Shown in pieces: positions 1 to 39,410 of a stretch of 49,988 nt of DNA. Position numbers and translations under genes: made by a program. How positions within the stretch are numbered: the stretch's first letter is position 1; each line of letters begins with the position of its first letter. This DNA comes from a virus. Taxonomy: Duplodnaviria > Caudoviricetes. Location of the stretch: the IMG/VR virus record IMGVR_UViG_3300040971_000365, positions 1 through 49,988 of that record; one strand, given 5' to 3'. The notes beneath the pieces are model-generated. The model worked only from the letters and a program-made list of their open reading frames with translations, had not been told where the DNA came from and made no database searches.

Positions 1-864
1 ATGAGTGCGGCCACCCCAAATGTCGCGGCATCCGTCCGTGCGCGCCTGCTCAATGTCGCCAAGGCACAAGGCGTCGATTTCAATCAGGTGCTGGTGCGCT
101 TTGCCTTGGAGCGCATCCTCTATCGGCTGACCCAGTCGCCGCACGCGGATCGCTTTCTGCTCAAAGGTGCGCTGCTGTTCACGCTCTGGTACGACATGCC
201 ACACCGGGCCACACGCGATGCCGACCTCTTGGGCTTCGGTGCCAGCGATCTGGAGTCAGTGGCCCAAGTATTCCGGGACATCGCAGCCGTACCGGTCGAC
301 GACGGCATCGTGTTCGACCCAGCCTCTGTCACGGTCGAGGAGATCCGCAAGGAAGCAGGCTACGGTGGCGTTCGCGTGATGATTGCAGGCGATCTTGCCA
401 GAGCACGCTGCAAGACCCAGATCGATGTCGGCTTCGGCGACGCCGTCACCCCGGCACCTGTTGATTCGGTCTACCCAGTACTGCTGGAGGAAATGCCCGC
501 ACCACGACTGCGGGCCTACCCAACGTACACCGTCATCGCAGAAAAGCTCCACGCCATCGCTTTGCTGGGCATGACCAACAGCCGCTTGAAGGACTACTTC
601 GATCTATCTGTGCTGTTGGAAAGAGAAACTCTGGACACCGATCTGCTGGCCCAGGCGATCAAGGCCACGTTTGAAAGACGGGGCATGGCAGTTCCTGAAG
701 CGCTGCCAGTCGGCCTGACGGACGAGTTTGCACACGACGCTTCGCGCCAGGCGCTGTGGCTGGCATTTCTCAAGAAGAACGAACTTCCGCCAGAACCCTT
801 GCACGCCATCGTTGGCCGCTTGAGCGTGGCATTGGCCCCCGCGTTGAACACCGTCGCTCGTTGA
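1..864 (+). CDS. abiEii: AbiEii/AbiGii-family nucleotidyltransferase toxin (type IV toxin-antitoxin / abortive infection)
   Basis: Motifs FLLKGALL, RATRDADL, IDVGFGD, AEKLHA and SRLKDYFD are typical of AbiEii. The antitoxin would lie upstream of the window. Confidence 0.9.
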   Translation: MSAATPNVAASVRARLLNVAKAQGVDFNQVLVRFALERILYRLTQSPHADRFLLKGALLFTLWYDMPHRATRDADLLGFGASDLESVAQVFRDIAAVPVDDGIVFDPASVTVEEIRKEAGYGGVRVMIAGDLARARCKTQIDVGFGDAVTPAPVDSVYPVLLEEMPAPRLRAYPTYTVIAEKLHAIALLGMTNSRLKDYFDLSVLLERETLDTDLLAQAIKATFERRGMAVPEALPVGLTDEFAHDASRQALWLAFLKKNELPPEPLHAIVGRLSVALAPALNTVAR

Positions 865-934
865 ATATCCCTTCATAGGGCAGCCGCTTCGCGCCCTTCG
901 CCACGGTCAGTGGCGGTCTCCATACGGACTTTGC

Positions 935-1414
935 ATGGAGACCACGATGACTACTCGACTTTGCGCGCACTGCAGCCACCCCTTCGAACCCCGCCCACAG
1001 GTTCCCGACCAAGCGTTCTGCTCCGCCCCTGAATGCCAGCGGGCTCGCAAGCGCGAATGGCAGCGGGCAAAACTCCAATCCGATCCTGACTACCGCATCA
1101 ATCAGCAGGCGGCACAGCGCGCGTGGTCAAAGCGCAACCACGACTATTGGCGCAATCACCGAGACGCACAACAGGCAGACGGCGATCAAGGATCGCAAGC
1201 GGATGGGCCTCATCAGCAGCGAGTCATCGATCCTGTAAAGATGGACGTGTCAGCTCTGCCTTCCGGCATCTACCGGATCACAAGACGGCCAGACGTCCCG
1301 AATGGAACACCGGGCTCTTGGGTAGTTGAAATCACGCTGCTGTACGAAACCTGTGAATGCAAGATGGATGCGTCAAGAGATGACTTGATCGACAGCCAGG
1401 GAATCCGGCCTTAA
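935..1414 (+). CDS. Hypothetical zinc-finger-like protein
   Basis: 159-aa ORF with CxxC (CAHC) and CxxxxC (CSAPEC) followed by a basic helical segment. The start could be 935 or 947. Confidence 0.6.
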   Translation: METTMTTRLCAHCSHPFEPRPQVPDQAFCSAPECQRARKREWQRAKLQSDPDYRINQQAAQRAWSKRNHDYWRNHRDAQQADGDQGSQADGPHQQRVIDPVKMDVSALPSGIYRITRRPDVPNGTPGSWVVEITLLYETCECKMDASRDDLIDSQGIRP

Positions 1415-1562
1415 CTTCAAGCCCAAATGGGCTCTCGATCATCCTGGATGGCAACAATTTCAACCCTGTGCATTCCGGCCGCGCGTTGCAGGCCACGTGT
1501 ATGCCATTGAGGTGAAAGGCAGGCCCGAGAGCAAGTTCACACAACATAAAGTGATCGGGTCT

Positions 1563-3128
1563 ATGCAGGCAGAAGAGTTCTCCATTCCGGGGGCGGATCA
1601 GCCACCGACATTTCGGGCCGCCGAGTACGTTCGGATGTCGACCGAGCACCAGCAGTATTCGACGGAAAACCAAGCCGACAAGATCCGCGAATACGCTGCC
1701 CGGCGCAACATCGAGATCGTTCGCACCTATGCCGACGAGGGCAAGAGCGGCTTGCGCATCGATGGGCGGCGGGCGCTGCAGCAGCTGATCAAGGACGTCG
1801 AGACAGGCAGCGCGGACTTCCAGATCATTTTGGTCTATGACGTCAGCCGCTGGGGCCGGTTCCAGGACGCCGATGAGAGCGCCTATTACGAATACATTTG
1901 CCGCCGCGCCGGAATTCAGGTCGCGTACTGCGCCGAACAGTTCGAAAACGACGGCTCGCCCGTGTCGACCATCGTCAAGGGCGTCAAGCGTGCGATGGCG
2001 GGTGAATACAGCCGGGAGTTGTCGGCCAAGGTGTTCGCTGGTCAGTGCCGCCTTATCGAGTTGGGCTTTCGGCAAGGTGGCCCCGCTGGCTATGGCCTGC
2101 GACGCGTGCTGGTCGATCAGTCCGGCACGCTCAAAGGTGAGTTGGCGCGTGGCGAGCACAAGAGCCTGCAAACCGACCGCGTCATCCTTCAGCCAGGTCC
2201 GGATGATGAGGTTGCCGTGGTCAACCAGATCTACCGCTGGTTTGTCACCGACAACCAGACGGAGCTGGACATCGCCGAACGGCTGAATGCACAAGGAACG
2301 CGTACTGACCTTGGGCGCGATTGGACACGAGCGACCATCCGCGAAGTGTTGTCCAACGAGAAATACATCGGCAACAACATCTACAACCGGCGATCCTTCA
2401 AACTCAAGAAGCACCGGGTGGTCAACAGCCCAGAGATGTGGATCAAGAAGGAAGGCGCGTTCGAGGGCATCGTGCCACCGGAGCTCTTCTACACGGCGCA
2501 GGGCATCTTGCGCGCAAGGGCACATCGGTACAGCGACGAGGAGTTGATCGAGAAGCTGCGCAATCTTTACCAGCGCCACGGCTACCTGTCCGGCCTGATC
2601 ATCGATGAAGCTGAAGGCATGCCCTCGTCGGCGGCCTACGCGCATCGTTTCGGCAGTCTGATTCGCGCGTACCAGACGGTGGGCTTCACTCCGGATCGGG
2701 ACTACCAGTATCTGGAAGCGAATCAGTTCCTGCGCCGATTACACCCGGAGATCGTCGGCCAGACTGAACGGATGATCGCCGAGGTGGGCGGCATGGTGGA
2801 ACGCGATCCGGCCACCGACCTCCTCACCGTGAATCGCGAGTTCACCGTTTCACTGGTGCTGGCTCGCTGCCAATTGCTCGATAACGGGCGACGGCGCTGG
2901 AAAGTGCGCTTCGATACCAGCCTCGCGCCCGACATCACGGTGGCCGTGCGGCTGGACGACAGCAATCAGGCCGCCTTGGATTACTACCTGCTGCCCCGAC
3001 TGGACTTCGGTCAGGCACGTATCCATCTGGCCGACCACAACGGCATCGAGTTTGAGTGCTATCGCTTCGACAGCCTGGACTACCTGTATGGCATGGCCCG
3101 GCGCATCCGCATAAGGAGGGCCGCATGA
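1563..3128 (+). CDS. Large serine recombinase (resolvase plus recombinase domains)
   Basis: Catalytic motif AAEYVRMSTEHQ, plus DEGKSG, VYDVSRWGR and GGPAGYG. The start is chosen at ATG 1563; the ORF is open from 1497. Confidence 0.9.
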   Translation: MQAEEFSIPGADQPPTFRAAEYVRMSTEHQQYSTENQADKIREYAARRNIEIVRTYADEGKSGLRIDGRRALQQLIKDVETGSADFQIILVYDVSRWGRFQDADESAYYEYICRRAGIQVAYCAEQFENDGSPVSTIVKGVKRAMAGEYSRELSAKVFAGQCRLIELGFRQGGPAGYGLRRVLVDQSGTLKGELARGEHKSLQTDRVILQPGPDDEVAVVNQIYRWFVTDNQTELDIAERLNAQGTRTDLGRDWTRATIREVLSNEKYIGNNIYNRRSFKLKKHRVVNSPEMWIKKEGAFEGIVPPELFYTAQGILRARAHRYSDEELIEKLRNLYQRHGYLSGLIIDEAEGMPSSAAYAHRFGSLIRAYQTVGFTPDRDYQYLEANQFLRRLHPEIVGQTERMIAEVGGMVERDPATDLLTVNREFTVSLVLARCQLLDNGRRRWKVRFDTSLAPDITVAVRLDDSNQAALDYYLLPRLDFGQARIHLADHNGIEFECYRFDSLDYLYGMARRIRIRRAA

Positions 3129-4036
3129 ATCAGGACAAAGAGCATCGGCATTCGGAGTTACGGATGATTCCTCTCGAACGGATTGAAGTTCTCAACCCCC
3201 GCGAACGCAACAGCCGTGTGTTCGAGCAGATCGTTGGCAACATCCAGAACATCGGCCTGAAAAAGCCCATCATCGTGACGCCGCGTCCTGGGAGCAACGG
3301 CGAGCACTATCTCCTCATCTGCGGCGAGGGGCGCTTCAAGGCCTTCAAGACGCTCGGGCATCAAGAAATCCCTGCAATGGTGATGAACGTCGATGACGAA
3401 TCGGCCTTCATCATGAGCCTCACCGAGAACATCGCCCGGCGAAAGTTCAGCCCGTTGGAATTGCTGTCCGGCATCGAGCAACTGCGGGATCAGGGCTATG
3501 ACAAGAAATCCATTGCACAAAAGACAGGTCTGAGTCCGGAGTACGTTCAGGGCATCCTGCAATTGCTGCAGAACGGTGAGCAACGACTGCTGATGGCCGT
3601 GGGCAGCGGGCGCATCCCTCTCAATGCGGCGATCACCATCGCCGGCGCGGGCAGCGATGAGAAAGCGATTCAAGCCGCACTACAAGATGCCTACGAAACC
3701 GGAAAGCTGCGTGGCAGCCAGTTGATTCAAGCCCGTCGTGTGATCGAACGTCGCCGCACCCAAGGCAAGTCCATCGGCGGCAGGATGACATCCCGCAAGG
3801 CCAATGAGGATGTCACCACGTCCAGCCTGGTGCGGAACTACCAGAGGGAAGTCGAGCGACAGAAGCTACTGGTCAGGAAAGCAGAGACCGCTCAACGCAA
3901 CTTGCTGTTCATCGTCGGGGCCCTGCGCCAACTGCTGGCCGACGAGAATTTCACCACCCTGCTGCGCGCGGAAGGGCTCGACACACTGCCCCAGTATCTG
4001 GCGGAGCGGGTCTGGGCTCGAGGGAGCAGCACATGA
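3125..4036 (+). CDS. ParB/RepB/Spo0J-family partition-like protein
   Basis: ParB N-terminal signature (GLKKPIIV...LLICGEGR...SLTENIAR) followed by an HTH. ATGA overlap with the recombinase stop. Confidence 0.85.
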   Translation: MNQDKEHRHSELRMIPLERIEVLNPRERNSRVFEQIVGNIQNIGLKKPIIVTPRPGSNGEHYLLICGEGRFKAFKTLGHQEIPAMVMNVDDESAFIMSLTENIARRKFSPLELLSGIEQLRDQGYDKKSIAQKTGLSPEYVQGILQLLQNGEQRLLMAVGSGRIPLNAAITIAGAGSDEKAIQAALQDAYETGKLRGSQLIQARRVIERRRTQGKSIGGRMTSRKANEDVTTSSLVRNYQREVERQKLLVRKAETAQRNLLFIVGALRQLLADENFTTLLRAEGLDTLPQYLAERVWARGSST

Positions 4037-4911
4037 ACAAACTGCCCCTTGGCTTCGTGCCAGAGCCATTGATTCTTTCCCTCTCGTCCGTTCTGCCTTC
4101 GCGCAAGACGCCAGAAGGCTTGCTTGCCTCACGGAAATTCAAGCAAATCACCGCATCTATCGAGGCGGTCGGGCTGATCGAACCCCTGTCGGTGGGAAAG
4201 CCCAACCGCGAGGGGCAGCACATCTTGCTGGACGGGCACACACGACTGGTCGCGCTGAAACAGCTGGGCTTCGACAAGGCTCCCTGCCTGGTAGCCACCG
4301 ATGACGAAAGCTACACCTACAACAACCGGATCAATCGCCTCTCCAGTATTCAGGAGCACCTCATGATCCGTCGCGCTGTCGAACGGGGCGTCACCCCGGA
4401 AAAGCTGGCGAAGGCCTTGGACGTGGACATCAGCCACATCATCAAGAAGCTAAACCTGCTGGAAGGGATCTGCCCGGAGGCCGCCGAGTTGCTGCGCGAC
4501 CAGACGTTTTCGGCAAACCTTGGTGCAGTCCTGCGCAAGCTCAAGCCGACGCGTCAGGTTGAGTGCGTCGAACTGATGGTCAGCGCCAACAACATCACGG
4601 TCGCTTATGCCCAAGCGCTGGTTGCGGCCACGCCCAGCAACTTGCTCGTCGGTGAAACCAAGCCCAAGAAGATGACCGGCGTCAGCGCCGACCAGATGGC
4701 CAAGATGGAGAGGGAGATGGGCAACCTCCACGAGCAGTTCAAGCTCGCCGAGCAGACCTATGGTCAGGACATCCTCAACCTGGTGCTGGCTAAGGGCTAT
4801 CTCGCCAAGCTAATGGCCAACGAAGCCATCTTGCGCCACCTGACCAGAAACCACCCTGACGTGCTGAACGAGTTCGACAGCATCGTCCGCATGGTGGCGC
4901 TGGACAAATAA
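4033..4911 (+). CDS. Second ParB-like / RepB plasmid-partitioning-domain protein
   Basis: SIEAVGLIEPL...LLDGHTRL ParB-like domain plus HTH. ATGA overlap with the preceding gene. Confidence 0.8.
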   Translation: MNKLPLGFVPEPLILSLSSVLPSRKTPEGLLASRKFKQITASIEAVGLIEPLSVGKPNREGQHILLDGHTRLVALKQLGFDKAPCLVATDDESYTYNNRINRLSSIQEHLMIRRAVERGVTPEKLAKALDVDISHIIKKLNLLEGICPEAAELLRDQTFSANLGAVLRKLKPTRQVECVELMVSANNITVAYAQALVAATPSNLLVGETKPKKMTGVSADQMAKMEREMGNLHEQFKLAEQTYGQDILNLVLAKGYLAKLMANEAILRHLTRNHPDVLNEFDSIVRMVALDK

Positions 4912-5179: not shown

Positions 5180-5232
5180 TTGTGTGACAGGTAGACACAC
5201 TATAGAATGATGTTTTATGGTGCATAAAACAT
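5180..5232 (+). promoter_or_regulatory. Putative sigma70 promoter with adjacent palindromic operator
   Basis: TTGTGT (5180-5185), 17-bp spacer, TAGAAT (5203-5208), then a perfect inverted repeat ATGTTTTATG-gtg-CATAAAACAT (5210-5232). Confidence 0.6.
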
Positions 5233-5239
5233 TACTTTG

Positions 5240-5461
5240 ATGGCACGACCGCGACTTAACAAGAAGATCGTACGCACCTCCGTGTCCCTTGACGAGCACA
5301 TGTTCAACGAGGTGGCTCAACTTGCAGCCCAAAACGACGTGTCGGTAGCGTGGTTGGTTCGCAAAGCTGTTGCAGAACTTCTAGAGCGTCGTCGCGACGA
5401 GTTAGGACCGCAGTTGCCATTGTTAACAAGCGTTGCCACAGCTCGTGGAACCAAAGAATGA
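5240..5461 (+). CDS. Ribbon-helix-helix (CopG-like) regulator, putative R-M control protein
   Basis: RTSVSLD beta-ribbon followed by two helices (VSVAWLVRKAVAELLE). First gene of the operon. Confidence 0.75.
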   Translation: MARPRLNKKIVRTSVSLDEHMFNEVAQLAAQNDVSVAWLVRKAVAELLERRRDELGPQLPLLTSVATARGTKE

Positions 5462-5519
5462 CCTTGGCTTTCCGCGAAACAGATGGCCTCATCACCCCCC
5501 CAAAAACCAAAAGGAGCGG

Positions 5520-6968
5520 ATGATGGATTCACTGCGCGAAACCAATGAAATGTCCCAACTAAACACAGAAGCGATGCGAGAGAGCATTGGTATTCAGTCA
5601 GTGGGCAGAAATATCTCGAACACAAAACCGGAACGTGTTGTAGCTCAAGTGCATAAAAACCTAACAAAAATCCTGGAGCCGCTGGATGCGCTCTACCCGA
5701 TTGAGCAACGCTTCGATCTTGGGCCCTTTGTGCATTGGCGAGGCAACGCGTCATCGCCCATGCATCGTTGGTTGAGATATCGAGAAGCATATTCACCAGA
5801 GCTTATTGATAAGCTGCAGCTGGGCAGTCGAATTCTCGACCCATTCAGTGGTTGTGGTTCTATTCCTATTGGCGCTGCTATAAGAGGGAAAAAGTCTGTA
5901 GGTATCGATTTAAATCCGATTGCCGCGTTCTCGTCAAAGGTTAAGCTGACGCCACTGAAGCCGTCTTCAATACGCAAAATTAGGAGTTTCCTTGGAAGTT
6001 TTCCTTCCCTCCTTAGAAGTAGTGAACGATGGCCACTCCCCGAACTGAGCATATCGAAGAAAGTATTTGAGCCACAGATGCTTGATGCTGTTTTACGCGC
6101 CAGAACAGCTATTGAAATATCATTTAAAACCGACCCTCTTGCACGAAACTTTGTATTCCTTGCCTGGCTGGCCATCCTAGAAGGGGTCGGCAGCTACTTC
6201 AAGGAAGGCAACGGGATAAAGTATCGCAACAAGAAGCGTCAAAAGGGTAAGTACGAGAATCGCGCCGACGGCGAATGGCAACTGGAAAGATTCGGGGCGG
6301 ATCAAACGGCTTTTTTCTCCAAAACCTTTACGCACCAGCTAGAGATGATGCTGGAAGACACTGTTGAATGGCAATCTGGAGATTGGACGGGGCAGCAGCT
6401 GATAGAGGGTAGTGCATTCAATCTTGGCGAAATGCTCAAGGGGGAGACTTTCGATTCGGTGATCTTCAGTCCCCCATATGCGAATCGTTTTGACTACTTT
6501 GAGTCATTCAAGGTTGAGCTATGGTTTGGCAACTTTGTTAACTCCTATGCAGATCTTAATGCGCTTAGAAAAGCATCCTTAAGATCGCATCTAAACGCGG
6601 ACTATAAAAGGCCTTCAGAGAACTTGCCTGTTCTCGAGAAGTTAATTTCGTTGATGGATACCACAGCGAGTAGCTGGCGAATGGGTGTGCCAGACCTCAT
6701 GCGTGGCTATTTTCACGATATGGGTATGGTTCTTCGTCAGTGCCGAAGTGTTCTTCCCGCCGGTAAGTGTTATGTCGTTGTTGGAAACTCGGCCTTTGCA
6801 GGCGTGATTGTTCCTACTGACGTTCTCACAGCCATGGTCGGTATAAACGCAGGCTTTAGAAAAGCAACAATCATTGAAACCAGGCATTTGACCGTCGCGC
6901 CACAGCAGCGAAATATGCTGAAGGGTTTCGAAAAATATATGCGCGAATCGATAGTGGTACTTGAATGA
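5520..6968 (+). CDS. DNA amino-methyltransferase M1, alpha-class, probably N4-cytosine
   Basis: Motif I ILDPFSGCGS lies N-terminal and motif IV FSPPY C-terminal, followed by VVVGNS. RBS AAGGAG at 5511 precedes ATG 5520/5523. Confidence 0.85.
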   Translation: MMDSLRETNEMSQLNTEAMRESIGIQSVGRNISNTKPERVVAQVHKNLTKILEPLDALYPIEQRFDLGPFVHWRGNASSPMHRWLRYREAYSPELIDKLQLGSRILDPFSGCGSIPIGAAIRGKKSVGIDLNPIAAFSSKVKLTPLKPSSIRKIRSFLGSFPSLLRSSERWPLPELSISKKVFEPQMLDAVLRARTAIEISFKTDPLARNFVFLAWLAILEGVGSYFKEGNGIKYRNKKRQKGKYENRADGEWQLERFGADQTAFFSKTFTHQLEMMLEDTVEWQSGDWTGQQLIEGSAFNLGEMLKGETFDSVIFSPPYANRFDYFESFKVELWFGNFVNSYADLNALRKASLRSHLNADYKRPSENLPVLEKLISLMDTTASSWRMGVPDLMRGYFHDMGMVLRQCRSVLPAGKCYVVVGNSAFAGVIVPTDVLTAMVGINAGFRKATIIETRHLTVAPQQRNMLKGFEKYMRESIVVLE

Positions 6969-8389
6969 GTGATTTGAATGTTAAGCGAGGGAAAATGCCC
7001 GTCGAGCCACCCAGAAGTGGGCGGTCAAGAGGCGTTGCTACTCCAAAAGAAGGGCATGAGAGCCACGATGTAATCCGTGAAGTGGATGAGTTTCCCGAGC
7101 ACACTGAAATCAGTCATGGGGAGCTGCTGAGTCTAACTTTGTCGACTAAGACATCTGGGCTGACACATGGCCTTCACCGCTTCCCAGCCAAATATATTCC
7201 GCAGGTTCCTCAATGGGCGATTCGCAATTTTGCAGGAGATAAAAGTGTTGTCTGGGACCCATTTATGGGTTCAGGCACTAGCTTGGTCGAAGCGTTGTGC
7301 GCCGTTAAACAAAGTTACGGAACCGATATTGATCCTCTGGCCCGCTTAATCTCGAGCGCTAAAACTACCCCCTTAGACCCGTCACGACTAGCTACTCTAG
7401 CTGAGAAATTAGATTCTTCATGTCTGCCGTCATTGGAAGATTGCTTTCTTCCAATGGCAGGAGTTAAGAATGTGACTCACTGGTTTTCAGAGAAAACTTG
7501 GATAGACCTCTGTCGAATTTTCTCTGCCATCGAAAATCTTGACTGCAAGACAAGTGAGAGAAAGTTTTTCTTTGTTGTCTTTAGTTCAATTCTGCGTTGG
7601 GTGTCAAACGCCGATGACCAAACTCAAAAGACCTATGTGTCAGGGACTCTGAAAAAAAGTCCCCCAGAGGTCTTGCCAACGTTCGATAAAGCCCTACAGA
7701 AAGCACTACTCAGTGTTTCCAGCTTGGAATCTGTGTGGCAGGGGCGACAGGCCACCATTCTTGAGGGAAATGCATTGTCGGTTCCTCTTAAGGACGCGTC
7801 GGTTGACCTGATTGTCACAAGTCCACCGTACCTCGATTCGGTGGACTACATGTACAACTTTATGCTGGAGTATTTTTGGCTAGGTCCCCAAATTGGTGTG
7901 GCTAGCCGAGCTGAATACAACAGTCGCCGTAGAACGCCAATCGGAGCGAAGAATCCTTTAACACCAGCACATTCCGTACATGAAGCCTTGCTGGATTTGG
8001 TTGATCCACAGCAGATTCCCGAGTATCGAAGAAGTGCCGCCTTGAGCTACTTCGATCTGATGCAAAAGCACTTTATCGAAGCTGCTCGAGTAATGAAGGA
8101 TGGTGCCAGGTATGTTTTGGTAGTTGGGAATAGTCAGGCATCCACAGGTGTGCTACCAGTTCATGATTGCCTACTCCGGCTTGCAAAAACAGCAGGGCTT
8201 CACCTTGAGAAGGCGTTTGCGTATCGAATTCGTCGTCATTACATGAAGTTCCCACGAAAGGGACGTGGCGGAATTATTTTGATGGACTGGGTTATTACTC
8301 TTAAAAAAACTGATACTGCGCTTATGGAAGTGGAGGACCGGCTTCCACTTCCGCAGGTAACGATAGGAGCAGACGAGGTGGCAAATTGA
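6965..8389 (+). CDS. DNA amino-methyltransferase M2, alpha-class, probably N4-cytosine
   Basis: THGLHRFPAKY, VWDPFMGSGT (motif I), VTSPPY (motif IV) and VLVVGNS. ATGA overlap with M1. Confidence 0.88.
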   Translation: MSDLNVKRGKMPVEPPRSGRSRGVATPKEGHESHDVIREVDEFPEHTEISHGELLSLTLSTKTSGLTHGLHRFPAKYIPQVPQWAIRNFAGDKSVVWDPFMGSGTSLVEALCAVKQSYGTDIDPLARLISSAKTTPLDPSRLATLAEKLDSSCLPSLEDCFLPMAGVKNVTHWFSEKTWIDLCRIFSAIENLDCKTSERKFFFVVFSSILRWVSNADDQTQKTYVSGTLKKSPPEVLPTFDKALQKALLSVSSLESVWQGRQATILEGNALSVPLKDASVDLIVTSPPYLDSVDYMYNFMLEYFWLGPQIGVASRAEYNSRRRTPIGAKNPLTPAHSVHEALLDLVDPQQIPEYRRSAALSYFDLMQKHFIEAARVMKDGARYVLVVGNSQASTGVLPVHDCLLRLAKTAGLHLEKAFAYRIRRHYMKFPRKGRGGIILMDWVITLKKTDTALMEVEDRLPLPQVTIGADEVAN

Positions 8390-9582
8390 CGATTGCTTTC
8401 CCCCGCGCATCAAGGGCGCATGACTTTTGGCGTGTCAATAGCTACGGTTATCCCTGCTTCTTCAGCGACAGTGAGAAGTCACAGGAAGCTTGGACGACCT
8501 TGCTCTCATTTTTTGATTTTACCGACTATGACCAATTGAAGTCTCACTGGTCGTCGCCGGGAGCTCCTCGCCAATTAAGCTCACATGCAGTTGAAAGTTG
8601 GAAAGCAACGTTTGAAGAATTCGGTATTCTTTACGTAGAGTCGCGTTCGAACCGCATAACCATCACCCCAGCAGGCATACAGCTTCGCGAAGCCGCCGAA
8701 AGAGATGACCGCAACGAATTCGCCTGGATCGGGCTAAATCTTTTGTTGCGCTACCCATTACGAGGCCCTCGCCGTCCTAAAAGCGAAGCACACAGAGATT
8801 CCGACCTGCTTCTCTACAGATTTTGGTATGCGGCGCTACTCGACCTGGATGGCTATGTATGGTGGACTGAGTTAGAACGAATTCTGTGCCGAGTGTTTCT
8901 TACAAACGAAGCAATAGATGCGATTGAGGATGTTCGTAGTTTGAGGTTGCATCCAGAACTTATTGCCCAGGTTAATTTGCCTGCAGCACAAAGGCAAGGT
9001 GCTTTTTATAACTCACTTAATCAAGTTGCTGTTCACGCCGGAATGAATCACTTGCTACTTGGCGGTGAGGATATTGAATGTCCATATGGTGTAACCGAAC
9101 CTAAGAGGCGGCATTTCATTAGGCGAGATTGGATGGGAATGATCAGAAAGGCGCTATCCAACAGTGGGCAATCCGATCAGTGTTCGACCGGAGGGCTTGC
9201 AATCGCTCGCCTGCCTGCAGCACCTCGTTTTTCCGATGAGCGGGAGTATTTCGACTACCTTGGTGCGCGTGTCACACCGATGGCGACACTAGTAACATCC
9301 ACCCTTTCAAGCGTGGAGCTTCAGGGTGAAAGAGTGCTACTTTTGTCTTTGGGAGAAAACTATCAGGTCCTCGATGAACACCACATTGTAGGCTCTGTTG
9401 CATCACTCTGCCAACTCGCACGTGGACAGCGGATTATTCTGAGTCATGACGAGCAATGGACACATCTGGTTGAGGGCAAGGAGCTGGTAGATGCCCACGT
9501 TGTAAGAATAAGGATTCGTCGAGCAAGGCCCATATCAAATATCCAAGCAATCCGCACACTTCTCGGGGGTAATAATGTCTGA
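8386..9582 (+). CDS. Hypothetical protein, putative DNA-specificity subunit (AlwI/LlaJI.R1-like recognition domain)
   Basis: TTG start overlaps the M2 stop. The segment FGILYV...ITITPAG..L...LLLRYP...YRF...LLDLDGY...EL resembles winged-helix recognition domains of AlwI-family enzymes. No nuclease motif seen. Confidence 0.55.
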   Translation: MTIAFPRASRAHDFWRVNSYGYPCFFSDSEKSQEAWTTLLSFFDFTDYDQLKSHWSSPGAPRQLSSHAVESWKATFEEFGILYVESRSNRITITPAGIQLREAAERDDRNEFAWIGLNLLLRYPLRGPRRPKSEAHRDSDLLLYRFWYAALLDLDGYVWWTELERILCRVFLTNEAIDAIEDVRSLRLHPELIAQVNLPAAQRQGAFYNSLNQVAVHAGMNHLLLGGEDIECPYGVTEPKRRHFIRRDWMGMIRKALSNSGQSDQCSTGGLAIARLPAAPRFSDEREYFDYLGARVTPMATLVTSTLSSVELQGERVLLLSLGENYQVLDEHHIVGSVASLCQLARGQRIILSHDEQWTHLVEGKELVDAHVVRIRIRRARPISNIQAIRTLLGGNNV

Positions 9583-10816
9583 TATCAATGAAAGCGAGCT
9601 AGTTGATAGTGGCGCAATTCCTCCGACTGATTTTCACGAATCAATCGAACGTTTGCGTGAGATTGCTCAATATGACCTTGAATTTCCTGATGATTTTGAT
9701 AATCGCCTAGCGGAGGCCACATCTCAGTTGGTCGTTCCGGAGGACGTCCTCCGAGCGGCTGCTGCGGCAATACGCGTTGGACATATTGTGTTGCAGGGGC
9801 CACCAGGCACAGGAAAGAGTTCCCTTGTACGTGCCTTAGCTAAAGCATTCAACGCATCGACTTTCGCAGTGACTGCACATGAGGATTGGACGATCTACGA
9901 TGTCATTGGCCGACTTGAGTTGCGGCTAACCGAAGACCGCAAGGAAGAAATTACCCCGGTTAACGGCGCACTAACTGAGGCAGTGATTCGATGTGGAAAT
10001 AATGTTGTTCAGCATTTTGATGACCCCAGTCATCCGCAAGCCGAGTGGCTATTGATTGATGAATTAAATCGCGCTCATCTTGATAAAGCATTCGGCGAGC
10101 TTTTCTCTGTGCTAGGCACGGATGATCTGGTACCAATTAATCTCCCCCATCAAAAAGATGGAAACAGGGAATTGGTCATACCAAAGAGGTTTCGAATAAT
10201 TGCAACACTTAACTCATATGACAAGCAATTTGTTCAAAGTCTGAGCCAAGCTATTCGACGTCGATTTACATTTATTTCTCTTGACGTGCCACCTAAGAAG
10301 CCTTCGAACGAGACGTGGCGTTTTGATCCAGGCCACGCATCTCCCGCGATCAAAGAATTTTCGTATGTCATTCAAAGAGCTGCGCAACGCATCGCTCGTC
10401 GCGAATGTTCAATGAATCCGGAGCGAGCTGCTGCAACCACTGATCTCATATTGCAAGAGGCGAAAAACTCCCACCTTGAGCGTATTGCAGCATTGTTCGG
10501 AATTGTCGAATCTGTTAGATATGCTCCGGATGGTGGAGGAGTTCCACACCTTCCGATTGGAACAGCTCAGTTAATTGATACTGTAGAAATTTTTTTGACA
10601 AGACATCGGCAAGATGGAGAAGTCGATGCGACTGCTGATCTGAATCTCGACTGGGCAGCATCTGTCAAGTTGGCGCCGCTGTTCGAATCCGACGTTCTGG
10701 AGCCCGATCAACTCGTCAAGTTTGCGAGCGCACTACCACAGCCGTTTTCAAATCAATTTGCGCGCCAATTGCTCATTATTTCGGCATCGGGAATGCACTT
10801 TGTCCCAGAACAATGA
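9575..10816 (+). CDS. mcrB: McrB-family AAA+ GTPase lacking a fused DNA-binding domain
   Basis: Walker A GPPGTGKS, Walker B LLIDELNRA, FGEL, McrB NxxD signature (IIATLNSYD) and AIRRRF arginine finger. Confidence 0.85.
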   Translation: MSDINESELVDSGAIPPTDFHESIERLREIAQYDLEFPDDFDNRLAEATSQLVVPEDVLRAAAAAIRVGHIVLQGPPGTGKSSLVRALAKAFNASTFAVTAHEDWTIYDVIGRLELRLTEDRKEEITPVNGALTEAVIRCGNNVVQHFDDPSHPQAEWLLIDELNRAHLDKAFGELFSVLGTDDLVPINLPHQKDGNRELVIPKRFRIIATLNSYDKQFVQSLSQAIRRRFTFISLDVPPKKPSNETWRFDPGHASPAIKEFSYVIQRAAQRIARRECSMNPERAAATTDLILQEAKNSHLERIAALFGIVESVRYAPDGGGVPHLPIGTAQLIDTVEIFLTRHRQDGEVDATADLNLDWAASVKLAPLFESDVLEPDQLVKFASALPQPFSNQFARQLLIISASGMHFVPEQ

Positions 10817-12083
10817 CAATCAGCTGGGGCAGCGCTTCCTTAAGGAGGCGCTTCCTCTTATATCGACATACTTCTCTGGAGAGAGCGTAGAGCTTGCAGG
10901 AGCATCTGCGTCTATTGGCCAGGAGGCTGACGAAGAAAGTATCGAATTTGGTCAGCACATTCGATTTAGGCACGCCATTGCATGTTGTGCCGAGCTATTT
11001 CCAATAGTTCAAAGAATAGAGAGTGGCTTGTCAAGCGTAACAGATACCACTCGGACAGAGACTAGGGGAGTGATACGCGGTCGACTCGATATACCCCGAT
11101 ACGTGGCCAGGAGATCTGCGTCTTTTTCTTGGCCGAAGAGCTATCCCATCCTAGTAACTACGGAGAACGCATCGACGCCAGAAAATGAGCTGGTAGTGCG
11201 AGTTTTTAGGGTATTGCTTCAACGTCTACCCATATCTCAGTTTCCGCCGAACTCCGCCGAGACCATACTTGGGCGGAGGTATAAGAGCTGGATCCTTGGC
11301 CGAATGAAGCGTGATCCATGGAGTGTGATTTCCTGTACCTCATCCTTGCCCAGGCTGTATATGGAGGCATGTCGGCGAATTGCACGAAGACAGACAGGCA
11401 ACGAACAAGCTTATGCAGCCCTAGTAGCTTTGGTAAGGGATTGGCACTTAATTGGCGAGGAATTTTCCGGATCACCATCTTCGGAGAAGTTCGTCAACTC
11501 GCTTCTATCCTTTCCGGCTGATCAATCGTTTCTTGATCGAATCTACGAAATCTGGTGCATTCGTTCAGTCGCACAGGCATTCATCAAGCTTGGTGGGAAA
11601 TTGATAGATGGCCCATGCAAGATGACGGATAGCAGACGAAGGCCAATTTACACGTTTGATTTTTCATCAACACGCATTGAAATTTGGTTTCAATGCTCCT
11701 TGCCCAGTGATGATGCAAATTGGTTCTATGAATCCACCGGAAGCTCTCTGCGAGGCATACCGGATATAACAGTAGTTGCAGATGGGACTCATCGAATCAT
11801 AATCGATGCAAAAAACAGGATGGTAGTTGGGGCAACGCGGTCAGAGGAAACATACAAAATGCTTGGGTATTTTGAAAACTTTCGAAAAACCCTCGGTGGC
11901 GGAACAAATTGGGGCGTTCTTGCCTTTGTTTCCCAGAACGGATTCTCTAGAACCATCAAGTCGCCTGATGGGCGTTTGCTTGAATTAATCAGCGCACACC
12001 CTACAGCATTCGCGGAATGTAATTTTCACGAAGATATACAAAAAATAGTTGGCGCGTGGATGGGCAGGATTGATAGTAAATAG
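10800..12083 (+). CDS. mcrC: McrC-family PD-(D/E)xK nuclease subunit
   Basis: McrC-like IRGRLD...TPEN segment, IYEIWC, IPDITV...IIIDAKNR...YKMLGY. The start is uncertain; TTG 10800 was chosen. Confidence 0.8.
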   Translation: MSQNNDNQLGQRFLKEALPLISTYFSGESVELAGASASIGQEADEESIEFGQHIRFRHAIACCAELFPIVQRIESGLSSVTDTTRTETRGVIRGRLDIPRYVARRSASFSWPKSYPILVTTENASTPENELVVRVFRVLLQRLPISQFPPNSAETILGRRYKSWILGRMKRDPWSVISCTSSLPRLYMEACRRIARRQTGNEQAYAALVALVRDWHLIGEEFSGSPSSEKFVNSLLSFPADQSFLDRIYEIWCIRSVAQAFIKLGGKLIDGPCKMTDSRRRPIYTFDFSSTRIEIWFQCSLPSDDANWFYESTGSSLRGIPDITVVADGTHRIIIDAKNRMVVGATRSEETYKMLGYFENFRKTLGGGTNWGVLAFVSQNGFSRTIKSPDGRLLELISAHPTAFAECNFHEDIQKIVGAWMGRIDSK

Positions 12084-12106
12084 TTTGAATCGAGCAATTC
12101 GCAAAA

Positions 12107-12565
12107 TTAAATTCGTTCGGATGTTCCTAGTAGAAACGATTGCAGCATTTGCGCATCCTTGTTGCTTAGTTTTCGCAAGGATCGAATTAGTCCGACATTC
12201 ACCGCCCAGCCGTTAACGCGATGGTCGACATTCCTAAAGCGTTCTAGAGAATCCCAAAGCTCTTTCGTTTTTACCGGGACTTCTGCTTCTTCGTCGAGTA
12301 TGCGAATTGGGTCAACCTCAACTATGACGGGTAATCCGTGCTTCTTCGCATAGATGTGCTCGGGTGATTTGTATGGCTTTGATGCGACCTTCAAAACTCC
12401 ACACCAAGTCATTCTCTCTGCTAGGTAGCAAATCAAGACATCCCCAATCTCTACGTTTTTCAGGCTTGTCTCAAGAGTTAAGCGAAAGCCAAGTGCTTTG
12501 CTTGGCATTGCTTTAAATTCTCGCCAAGTTGATGGCTTAAATACTACTGAATAGCTGTTTGACAT
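12107..12565 (-). CDS. Stand-alone EVE (PUA-like) domain protein
   Basis: Pattern LKNVEIGDVLICY...CGVLKVASKPY...P.IVEV...SLRKLSNKD matches EVE domains. Confidence 0.7.
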   Translation of the reverse strand: MSNSYSVVFKPSTWREFKAMPSKALGFRLTLETSLKNVEIGDVLICYLAERMTWCGVLKVASKPYKSPEHIYAKKHGLPVIVEVDPIRILDEEAEVPVKTKELWDSLERFRNVDHRVNGWAVNVGLIRSLRKLSNKDAQMLQSFLLGTSERI

Positions 12566-36570: not shown

Positions 36571-36794
36571 TGAAAACACCTGCCAACGAACGGGAGCAGG
36601 CCCTGCGTTGGCTGATTGCCAACCGGCGTCCCGACATCTCCATCGAGCAGGCCGTGCGCGTCATGTGCATGGCACTGCCGCGCGATCTCACCACTATGCA
36701 AATCCTGCGGCGTATCGCCGAGGAAGAAGAGGCCAAGCAGCCCGGCCAGCCATTCAACTGGCGCACACTTCCTGGTCTGCCGCCTCGCGGATAG
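36570..36794 (+). CDS. Hypothetical protein
   Basis: TGATG coupling to the previous gene. The 3' end overlaps the convergent methyltransferase. Confidence 0.45.
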   Translation: MKTPANEREQALRWLIANRRPDISIEQAVRVMCMALPRDLTTMQILRRIAEEEEAKQPGQPFNWRTLPGLPPRG

Positions 36795-37989
36795 CCGTCT
36801 GGCCGGTGAAGTCCTCCCACCGGCGCACGATCACATCCACGTACTTCGGATCGAGTTCGATCAGCCGCGCGACGCGACCTGACTTCTCCGCTGCGATCAG
36901 CGTCGTGCCAGAACCGCCGAACGGATCGAGCACCACGTTACCCGGGCGGCTCGAATTGCGGATCGCCCGCTCCACCAGCTCCACTGGCTTCATCGTCGGG
37001 TGCAAGTCGTTCTTCTGCGGCTTCTTGATCGCCCACACATCGCCCTGATCACGGTCACCACACCAGTGACGTTGCGCACCCTCGGGCCATCCGTACAGGA
37101 TTGGTTCGTACTGGCGCTGGTAGTCGGCGCGGCCGAGCGTGAAAGTGTTCTTGGCCCAGATGATGAACGTCGACCACTTGCCACCAGCGGCGCGGAAGGC
37201 GGCCTGCAGAACGTCCAGTTCGCTGGATGACATCGCTACGTAAATACCGCCCCGGCAATGTGTGACGGTGGGCGTCAGTGCTGCCAGAAGAAAGTCGTAG
37301 AAGCCATCGCCCAAGTTGTCGTTGAGGATCGCGCGATCCTTTCCGCGCATCTTGTCCTTGGCGCTGTTGGCGTAGTTCACGTTGTACGGCGGGTCGGTGA
37401 AGACCATGTCTGCCAAGTCGCCTTGCATCAGCCGGGTATAGCTCTTTGCCACGGTCGAGTCGCCGCACAGCAGCCGGTGCTGACCCATGATCCAGATATC
37501 ACCCGGACGCGAGATCGGTGTCTCGCCAACATCCGGTACAGCATCCTCATCGGTCTGGCCTTCGTTGTTCGGCTCGTCGCCCGCGATCAGTTCGGCCAGG
37601 GCGTCGGCGTCAAAGCCGGTGATGTCGAGGTCGAAACCGTCCAGCTGCAGCGCCTCCAACTCGATCCGCAACATCGCATCATCCCAGCCTGCGTTCTCGG
37701 CGATGCGGTTGTCCGCGATGACCAAGGCGCGGCGCTGAGTTGGGCTCAGGTGATCGAGTACGACCACGGGCACGATCTCCAGCCCGAGCTTCTGCGCAGC
37801 CGCCAAGCGTCCATGCCCGGCGACGATGATGCCGTCACTGCCTGCAAGGATCGGATTGGTGAAGCCAAACTCGGCAATCGATGCGGCGATCTGCGCCACC
37901 TGATCATCCGAGTGCGTCCGCGCATTGCGTGCATAGGGCAGCAGTTTGGCGGTTGGCCACTGTTCGATCTTGTCTGCCAACCAGTTCAT
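36754..37989 (-). CDS. ParB-domain-fused beta-class DNA methyltransferase (DPPY, probably m6A)
   Basis: ParB-like PYARNARTH...AGHGRL...ADNR, then FTDPPYN, HPTMKP and LDPFGGSG. Confidence 0.9.
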   Translation of the reverse strand: MNWLADKIEQWPTAKLLPYARNARTHSDDQVAQIAASIAEFGFTNPILAGSDGIIVAGHGRLAAAQKLGLEIVPVVVLDHLSPTQRRALVIADNRIAENAGWDDAMLRIELEALQLDGFDLDITGFDADALAELIAGDEPNNEGQTDEDAVPDVGETPISRPGDIWIMGQHRLLCGDSTVAKSYTRLMQGDLADMVFTDPPYNVNYANSAKDKMRGKDRAILNDNLGDGFYDFLLAALTPTVTHCRGGIYVAMSSSELDVLQAAFRAAGGKWSTFIIWAKNTFTLGRADYQRQYEPILYGWPEGAQRHWCGDRDQGDVWAIKKPQKNDLHPTMKPVELVERAIRNSSRPGNVVLDPFGGSGTTLIAAEKSGRVARLIELDPKYVDVIVRRWEDFTGQTAIREAADQEVCAS

Positions 37990-39410
37990 GCCAGCACCTC
38001 ATCATCAACGGTTGTGGCGCGCTCGGCGGCAACCTGTTCGAACGATTGACCTGTTGCCAGCAGCGTGACCGGCACGCCAGGGTGGTTCTGCTGAAAGCGC
38101 TTGATGGCCACGTCCACGTACTCCGGCGCGATCTCCATGCTGCGGCAGAGGCGGCCAGTGCGCTGCGCGGCCAGCATCGTGGTACCGCTTCCACCGAAGG
38201 GCTCGAACACAATGTCTCCGGCTTCGGTGTAAGCCTCGATGGCAAACTCCGGCAACGCCACCGGGAACACAGCCGGGTGATCGATGTCCTGCCCGATCTT
38301 GCCCTTGTGGCGCATCACGCGGATCACCGAGTCGGGGATGCGAGTGTCCTGCGTCGGCTGACCCTTGTGTGTCCAGCCGCCGACCTCGCCATCCTTACCG
38401 CGCATCGCCGTGGACGACCCGTCAGCGCGCAGGTGTGATTCCTGGCCTGCGTGCTTGCAAGGCACGATCTTGTTGGGTTTGCGGGTGCTGCGATTGAAGT
38501 GGAAAACAAACTCGAAGCTGGGAGCCAGTCGGCCCTGCCAGTCGCCTGGCATGCCTGGCCCCTGATCCCAGACGTACCAGGCAAAGCGCCGCCAGCCCTG
38601 TGACCGCATCCAGGACAGCCAGCCGTCCCAATAGGGGATGACTTCGTTGTCGCGGTGGATCAGCCCGAGGTTGATCAGCACCTGTCCGTTGCCCGCCATC
38701 GGCAGATGCGCGAACACACCGCGCATCAGTGCGTCCCAATCGGCGATGCCGCCGGAGGTGTAGTCGCGTTGATTGCCGTAAGGCGGCGAGGTGAAGCACA
38801 GCTGCGCGGTGTCACCCTGCATCAGCGTGGCGACAACGGCCGGTTCGGTGGCGTCGCCACAGATCAATCGGTGCGAGCCGATGGCCCAGAGATCGCCTTC
38901 GCGCGACACTGCGACCACTGGCGCAGCAGGCACATCGTCTGCTGAATCGGGTTCGTTGGCGTCTGCTTCATCCTGCACCACCGGTTCTGCTTCAGCGGAC
39001 GTGGCATCAGCCAGCAGTGCGTCGATCTCGATGTTCTCGAAGCCGGTCAGCGACAGCTCGTAACCTGCTTCGGAAAGCTCCGCCAGTTCGAGCGCCAACA
39101 TCTCCTCATCCCAGCCAGCGTCAAGCGCCAGTCGGTTGTCGGCGATGACCAGCGCACGTTTTTGCGCGGTGCTGAGGTGAGCCAGTTCGATCACCGGCAC
39201 TTGATCCAGCCCGAGCTTGCGAGCAGCAGCCAAACGACCGTGGCCCGCGATGATGCCGTTGTCGCCATCAACCAGAACCGGGTTTGTCCAGCCGTATTCG
39301 ACGATGCTGGCGGCGATCTTGGCGATCTGCGCATCGGAATGCGTGCGCGGATTGCGGGCGTAGGGAATCAGCGCCTCGACCTTGCGGTACTCGACGTTGA
39401 GCGTGTTCAA
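37986..39410 (-). CDS. ParB-domain-fused beta-class DNA methyltransferase (SPPY, m4C or m6A)
   Basis: Same ParB N-terminus, then FTSPPY, HPAVFP and EPFGGSG. TTG start. Confidence 0.88.
   Translation of the reverse strand: MNTLNVEYRKVEALIPYARNPRTHSDAQIAKIAASIVEYGWTNPVLVDGDNGIIAGHGRLAAARKLGLDQVPVIELAHLSTAQKRALVIADNRLALDAGWDEEMLALELAELSEAGYELSLTGFENIEIDALLADATSAEAEPVVQDEADANEPDSADDVPAAPVVAVSREGDLWAIGSHRLICGDATEPAVVATLMQGDTAQLCFTSPPYGNQRDYTSGGIADWDALMRGVFAHLPMAGNGQVLINLGLIHRDNEVIPYWDGWLSWMRSQGWRRFAWYVWDQGPGMPGDWQGRLAPSFEFVFHFNRSTRKPNKIVPCKHAGQESHLRADGSSTAMRGKDGEVGGWTHKGQPTQDTRIPDSVIRVMRHKGKIGQDIDHPAVFPVALPEFAIEAYTEAGDIVFEPFGGSGTTMLAAQRTGRLCRSMEIAPEYVDVAIKRFQQNHPGVPVTLLATGQSFEQVAAERATTVDDEVLA

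Follow-up and report, generated by a model that had tools for sequence, protein, structure and literature searches.

Among restriction systems that combine an McrB-type motor with an McrC-type nuclease, LlaI from the Lactococcus plasmid pTR2030 and BsuMI from Bacillus subtilis are, according to a preprint (bioRxiv 10.64898/2026.08.31.748284), the only characterised ones of a three-gene layout. Both have a separate DNA-binding subunit, a reader-less McrB-type motor, an McrC-type nuclease and cognate methylase(s), and LlaI also has a controller gene. In the same preprint BsuMI.R1 is without a confident model, LlaI is without a known target, and the R2 motors of both accept ATP and GTP alike. Methylase-linked McrB clades are mentioned, with the promise of a further paper, in another article (PMC11090510), and the follow-up was not found in literature searches. 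Here we analysed a 49,988-nucleotide stretch of viral DNA (Duplodnaviria; Caudoviricetes; IMG/VR record IMGVR_UViG_3300040971_000365), which is referred to in its full length as the window. It carries six same-strand genes encoding a ribbon-helix-helix (RHH) protein, the methylases M1 and M2, a specificity subunit S, McrB and McrC, and a convergent EVE-like gene (Table 1). With a probability of about 80%, we interpret this operon as a methylase-protected restriction-modification system in which the reader S would aim McrB and McrC at the unmethylated form of a predicted site, CACGGG/CCCGTG.

The elements of the LlaI/BsuMI layout, namely a separate predicted reader, a reader-less motor, an McrC-type nuclease and accompanying methylases, are all found in the window. 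The G+C content is 47-51% across the operon stretch versus 58-67% in the rest of the window, and the last five genes (M1 to McrC) overlap one another. A first-pass annotation made from the letters alone had described this lower-GC operon with its overlaps, two alpha-class SPPY methylases, a 398-residue orphan, an McrB with its Walker A about 75 residues from the N-terminus and no DNA-binding domain, and an McrC with a PD-DxK motif, and these descriptions were borne out. It had also proposed an McrBC-type restriction complex of three subunits, one of them responsible for specificity and encoded apart, and this was supported by the predicted fold of S and by domain swaps among its relatives.

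S had no match in Pfam, PADLOC, NCBIfam or PHROG and none in sequence searches against the PDB, and an Atlas search yielded only leads under 0.9 for S (RE_AlwI, BpuJI_N, FokI) and none for its C-terminal domain, while a homologue search found 246 relatives. The structural model built with 56 sequences (predicted local distance difference test score, pLDDT, 89) matched Nt.BspD6I in Foldseek with an E-value of 3e-6. In VIA-align, residues 11-302 aligned with Nt.BspD6I at Z 18.0 (244 aligned residues, root-mean-square deviation (rmsd) 3.9), and S aligned with the BpuJI recognition domain at Z 16.5 (242 residues, rmsd 3.2) and with FokI at Z 8.6. S is therefore likely a DNA reader whose N-terminal ~300 residues form a recognition domain of the FokI/BspD6I/BpuJI type. 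The small beta-domain that follows occurs only together with McrB and, on the strength of this co-occurrence, is likely an adaptor that would dock on the motor.

The linkage of these genes was followed in 71 loci from GTDB, IMG/VR, metagenomes and two plasmids, a count that includes near-identical copies and cut contigs. In all 53 loci with a two-domain S, McrB followed it; McrB and McrC were present in 38/38 loci with room for them, M2 stood upstream of S in 69 of 70, and M1 together with M2 was found in 47 of 48 with room (the exception being L080). The M1-M2-S-McrB-McrC unit is conserved across Proteobacteria, Acidobacteria, Planctomycetes and Actinobacteria, with members in Pseudomonas, Enterobacter, Serratia, Citrobacter and Burkholderia; no relatives were matched in INPHARED phages or RefSeq E. 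coli. Eight loci have the methylase genes and a complete S N-terminal domain but neither the C-terminal domain nor McrBC. In seven of these eight the N-terminal domain is fused to a nuclease (three HNH, four NOV_C; one locus was without a Pfam match), so that the same methylase pair stands beside an HNH or a PD-(D/E)xK enzyme, and three of the four NOV_C fusions share one 490-residue type. Among 62 distant S matches, hand-picked by length from 145 profile matches, 25 were fused to an AAA_5 motor, eight to HNH and four to NOV_C, and seven of the 22 AAA_5 fusions checked had the McrB-type MNxxD loop; a separate search for longer S fusions, which covered 721-2055 residues only, returned none. Because the N-terminal domain is swapped across nucleases and motors, it appears to be a portable recognition module, and the C-terminal domain tracks with free McrB. 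A distant S subfamily of ~20% identity retains both domains and conserved cysteines (P0172, P0178, P0180, P0182, P0202, P0206, and further P0208, P0217, P0220, P0226, P0262); its gene context (alignment A8) was not found, two of 401 genomes having matched, one of them G000. Elsewhere, S is interrupted by insertion-sequence-like genes (L012:9083-11660), the Arthrobacter plasmid pZXY23 (L090:2227-10026) has the same layout (a regulator, two DPPF methylases, a 266-residue orphan, McrB and McrC), its motor and nuclease being related to those here and its reader not, and a related motor in L091 has a long N-terminal extension.

The motor has Walker A and B motifs, the NxxD loop and the arginine pair, and its best PDB matches are McrB of E. 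coli (E 4e-12) and of T. gammatolerans (E 2e-11). It has no fused DNA-binding domain, and its N-terminal 45 residues are conserved. In at least 90% of 32 sequences, a serine follows the P-loop in place of the aromatic stacking residue of the canonical McrB and LlaI.R2 active sites. Because of this replacement, and because the LlaI and BsuMI motors are not GTP-selective, the GTP-driven complex of the first-pass annotation is doubtful, and the motor is probably not GTP-specific. McrC gave a weak Pfam match (E 0.065) and its profile none among PDB sequences; its identity was settled by a fold search, in which the model (pLDDT 85) had as top rows E. coli McrC (E 2e-10), T. gammatolerans McrC and BsuMI YdjA (E 4e-5). 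The nuclease signature is invariant (P-D, D-x-K), as is a YKxLGY motif.

M1 and M2 are 27% identical to each other and match type II methylase models of PADLOC. In both, motif I precedes SPPY (motif IV), the alpha-class order that is also found in M.DraR1; there was no Pfam match to C5-methylases. The M1 profile matches M.DraR1 at E 3e-26, and other plasmid methylase matches gave no characterised anchor. M.DraR1 is an N4-methylcytosine (m4C) enzyme, although one earlier cited paper called it a C5 enzyme. In the homologue discussed below, cytosine is the modified base on either strand. Together with the relationship of these amino-methylases to M.DraR1, this makes double-strand m4C likely, with M1 probably modifying one strand of CACGGG and M2 the other.

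The target was predicted from word counts in 33 cassettes chosen without near-identical copies, using codon-shuffle and Markov nulls. CACGGG was the most depleted non-palindromic hexamer, with 22 occurrences versus 56.3 expected under synonymous-codon shuffling (3/2078 by ratio) and versus 58.7 under the Markov null (rank 1/2079), and it ranked 3/2079 in the cassette flanks. By similarity to the window, observed and expected counts were 3 and 10.5 in the close group, which is the window's own clade (rank 12/2079), 14 and 32.1 in the middle group and 7 and 21.3 in the far group. Control sets were undepleted (ratio 0.92 in 20 chromosomal 20-kb pieces, 0.91 in 12 cassette-free island or plasmid loci), as was genome G000 (0.90, unremarkable). 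No specific avoidance was found among 4- and 5-mers in the cassettes, CCCGT alone not being depleted, and the window's cassette contains no CACGGG site.

This ranking was made before the S3/S4 tables of Blow 2016 were consulted. In each of these tables the word CACGGG occupies two rows, both Bag18758II: M1/M2.Bag18758II of Bryobacter aggregatus MPL3 (loci 5101 and 5102) is listed with caCgGg, detected at 73.3% in native single-molecule real-time (SMRT) data (PMC4752239). The capitals mark methylated positions, i.e., one modified cytosine per strand, and only three methylases are listed for the organism, the third a type IIG enzyme. Homologues of S (WP_031501158, 52% identical) and M2 (WP_162180049, 53%) lie on one 1,433,905-bp B. 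aggregatus contig and share long identical blocks with the window proteins. The M2 homologue would be part of the Bag18758II pair, which likely belongs to the same family as the window system, and CACGGG/CCCGTG is the likely target. The double-strand protection at an asymmetric site that the first-pass annotation had proposed thus agrees with both the homologue's methylome and own-site depletion, the m4C being suggested by the SPPY motifs.

Several points weigh against the restriction-modification reading or its predicted site. The window's cassette is by itself too short for significant depletion, the five nuclease-fused cassettes show none (3 versus 2.4 expected), and the depletion z-scores are inflated because the cassettes are related. 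The first-pass annotation had suggested looking for motif depletion in the prophage; this was weak (14 versus 20.6 expected), while other sites are strongly avoided there. The Bag18758II rows give the modification type as unknown and M2 as tentative, name no restriction enzyme, and were assigned to the B. aggregatus homologue by inference, not by sequence match. B. aggregatus S is 85% identical to the S of L005, which has McrB and McrC, but McrB and McrC of B. aggregatus itself were not seen, and at 52-53% identity the specificity may have shifted. M.DraR1, the nearest characterised enzyme found, is only 23% identical, and an SPPY motif does not strictly dictate the modified base. In L080 a fragment of S has no methylases upstream. 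Restriction, cleavage or anti-phage data were found for no member of the family.

Some of these points would also suit a methylase-protected McrBC machine of the same kind whose window copy has a target different from CACGGG. The modest identity to the B. aggregatus proteins, the weak depletion in the prophage and the lack of genome-level depletion speak for it, but CACGGG is depleted within the window's own clade and M2 and S share the long identical blocks with B. aggregatus, so that we regard another target as unlikely. Quite improbable, in our judgement, is a dual system in which the C-terminal beta-barrel of S or the EVE-like protein attacks modified phage DNA besides unmethylated CACGGG. 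Such a role has been proposed for stand-alone EVE genes near restriction systems in a previous study (PMC7641849), an EVE-like gene is a neighbour here, and Foldseek listed SRA and PUA-like domains among its weak matches (E 0.01-0.5). Against this, the best VIA-align rows for residues 310-385 were generic beta-barrels (Z 6-7.4), and the EVE-like gene is convergent, clade-limited (nine of the 35 loci with room for it) and disrupted by an insertion sequence in L036.

If McrBC were here an ordinary type IV enzyme acting on modified DNA, with unrelated orphan methylases as its neighbours, this would explain why no cognate restriction enzyme is named for Bag18758II (PMC4752239) and why PADLOC 2.0 detects the methylases only, having no matching restriction model. 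This reading is highly improbable, as McrB leaves no room for a modified-base reader, the methylases and S remain together where a fused nuclease replaces McrBC, the genes overlap, and the system's own site is depleted.

Under the preferred reading, restriction of unmethylated CACGGG/CCCGTG, the system would operate as follows. M1 and M2 would each modify one strand, at C3 of CACGGG and C2 of CCCGTG; these positions come from the homologue's published SMRT data, and we infer both the m4C and the transfer to the window locus. The N-terminal domain of S, given its predicted fold, would bind the unmethylated site, and the beta-domain may dock on the McrB hexamer, perhaps at the conserved N-terminal segment, as their co-occurrence suggests. 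By analogy with the family, McrC would stimulate nucleotide hydrolysis and the complex would translocate and cut between sites like McrBC. RHH may autoregulate the operon through an inverted repeat, so that methylation would precede restriction. With 1,340 CACGGG sites in the host genome, the cassette would act against DNA entering the cell and, in addition, penalise the loss of its carrier element.

Stand-alone copies of the S C-terminal domain (94-110 residues) were observed in L073 (3731-4171) and L085 (3896-4219; P0221) and as P0229, P0250 and P0253. Those in L073 and L085 sit just upstream of M1, are 37-43% identical to the S domain of the same locus, and are possible decoys or regulators of McrB. 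We tentatively suggest, at somewhat less than even odds, that the 95-residue beta-domain is a plug-in adaptor that makes a type IIS recognition domain the aiming subunit of McrBC, that one reader family has been used in three architectures (nuclease-fused, McrB-docked and McrB-fused), and that the L073 and L085 copies are decoys restraining restriction. If so, no McrBC before it would have combined m4C protection with CACGGG specificity, and its motor-nuclease could be re-aimed by swapping readers. How McrBC is aimed at unmethylated DNA can be tested directly in this family, which combines a confidently modelled reader with a predicted site and the published methylome of a homologue. For Bag18758II, a methylase pair listed without restriction enzyme, the family likely provides the missing partner. 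In the genera named above, restriction at CACGGG could limit phages and transformation.

Table 1. Predicted genes and regulatory elements of the operon region, in window coordinates.
Feature	Coordinates	Strand	Remarks
Candidate sigma-70 promoter	5180..5208	+	-35 near 5180-5185, -10 near 5203-5208; placed by eye, putative function
Inverted repeat	5210..5232	.	perfect 10-bp arms, 3-bp spacer; directly before RHH start
Ribbon-helix-helix protein (RHH)	5240-5461	+	Pfam RHH_1 E 2.6e-7
M1, alpha-class SPPY amino-methyltransferase	5520-6968	+	motif I DPFxGxG at residue 107, SPPY at 316
M2, alpha-class SPPY amino-methyltransferase	6965-8389	+	motif I DPFxGxG at residue 98, SPPY at 285
S, specificity subunit, 398 aa	8386-9582	+	~1-300 recognition domain; ~305-398 small beta-domain
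McrB-type AAA+ motor	9575-10816	+	Walker A from residue 75, Walker B, NxxD, RRR
McrC-type PD-(D/E)xK nuclease	~10800-12083	+	predicted start codon; PD..DAK
EVE-like protein	12107-12565	-	convergent; Pfam E 0.012 (below cut-off), PRK00809 E 1e-4

The RHH gene, found in 15 of the 46 loci with room upstream of M1, likely encodes an accessory controller. The inverted repeat in front of it, its likely operator, is identical in L036, L037 and L039-L041 and partly retained in L002, L043 and L044, and distant RHH genes are preceded by different palindromes. The -10-like stretch of the candidate promoter is kept in all five aligned upstream regions; a promoter scan gave three promoter-like sites versus 0.4 in shuffles, at positions slightly different from the placement by eye, and the operon message is probably leaderless. 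Relative to L036, L002, L043 and L044, in which RHH and M1 are coupled, the window has two additional bases near 5503, inserted into a C/A run. Because of this insertion the two genes do not overlap here, and M1 in this lineage would start from its own ribosome-binding site, uncoupled from the RHH stop. The operon is covered by RNA-library contigs from three studies, though contigs can neither show transcription nor rank genes; in X15 the lysis gene was without cover, an observation not used as evidence. The EVE-like gene, which the first-pass annotation had counted in, was rejected as a core part on account of its opposite strand and its restricted distribution, all its occurrences lying within the window's own clade; in L036 it is split by an IS1595 transposase (L036:11108-12052).

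On one side the cassette is bordered by a lambda-like prophage with terminase, portal, capsid, tail and integrase genes, whose endolysin end faces it, and on the other by a recombinase-ParB-ParB module (an AbiEii toxin gene, a serine recombinase and two ParB/RepB genes at 1-4911). In other genomes the slot after this module carries different defence genes (L030, L031, L033), including a type III-like system and a 5-methylcytosine (m5C) methylase with McrBC. An endolysin gene is next or next-but-one to the cassette in eight loci (two distant, L006 and L045), and four IMG/VR contigs hold the cassette, which elsewhere lies on a plasmid, beside a tyrosine integrase (L036), or with other flanks in two runs. 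Prophage cargo, as first annotated, is hence a fair reading at the window locus and several others, and not a demonstrated trait of the family, the cassette occurring in other contexts too. The prophage (12600-49988) avoids CGATCG (1 versus 36), GGCGCC (2 versus 28.5), GCCGGC (1 versus 25.5), CCGCGG (0 versus 21) and GGACC/GGTCC (10 versus 80), and two tandem ParB-fused amino-methyltransferase genes lie within it at 36754-39410.

Literature searches, which did not extend to REBASE or DefenseFinder, found no description of this family, although an entry for the methylases in REBASE is probable. Canonical type IV McrBC of E. coli shares the motor and nuclease folds and the catalytic motifs, but its reader of modified bases is fused to a GTP-specific motor and it lacks a cognate methylase, whereas the window has Walker A at residue 75 and a linked methylase pair. 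The type IIS enzymes Nt.BspD6I, BpuJI and FokI resemble S in recognition-domain fold and in the asymmetry of the site, which for S is a predicted one. The BpuJI recognition sequence, CCCGT, forms part of CCCGTG, although with only 7% identity between BpuJI and S this may be coincidence. S in the window lacks a nuclease domain, while the seven nuclease-fused relatives have one and resemble ordinary type IIS-like enzymes. LlaJI of the Lactococcus plasmid pNP40 likewise pairs two methylases, one for each strand of an asymmetric site, with McrB- and McrC-like restriction subunits (PMC1459862), but its methylases are m5C enzymes and a B3 reader is fused to its McrB (PMC12707154). The window has SPPY amino-methylases and a separate reader, and fused reader-motor relatives exist. 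Bag18758II has an adjacent methylase pair, homologous S and M2 proteins and a motif equal to the depleted hexamer; unlike in the window, only its methylases are assigned and no restriction subunits are named. The layout itself is that of LlaI and BsuMI, so that calling the operon a new defence system, as the first-pass annotation did, was overstated. The RHH gene has its counterpart in the LlaI controller. LlaI.R1 is described as ERCC4-like and S aligns over ~240 residues with a winged-helix recognition fold, the two being compared by description only. The LlaI methylases are N6-methyladenine enzymes and those of BsuMI m5C enzymes. Both systems differ from the window, with its two SPPY amino-methylases, its motor without an aromatic residue after the P-loop and its predicted asymmetric CACGGG site. 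What would be new relative to LlaI and BsuMI is a free FokI/BpuJI-type reader with an adaptor-like domain, the SPPY methylase pair and a predicted site.

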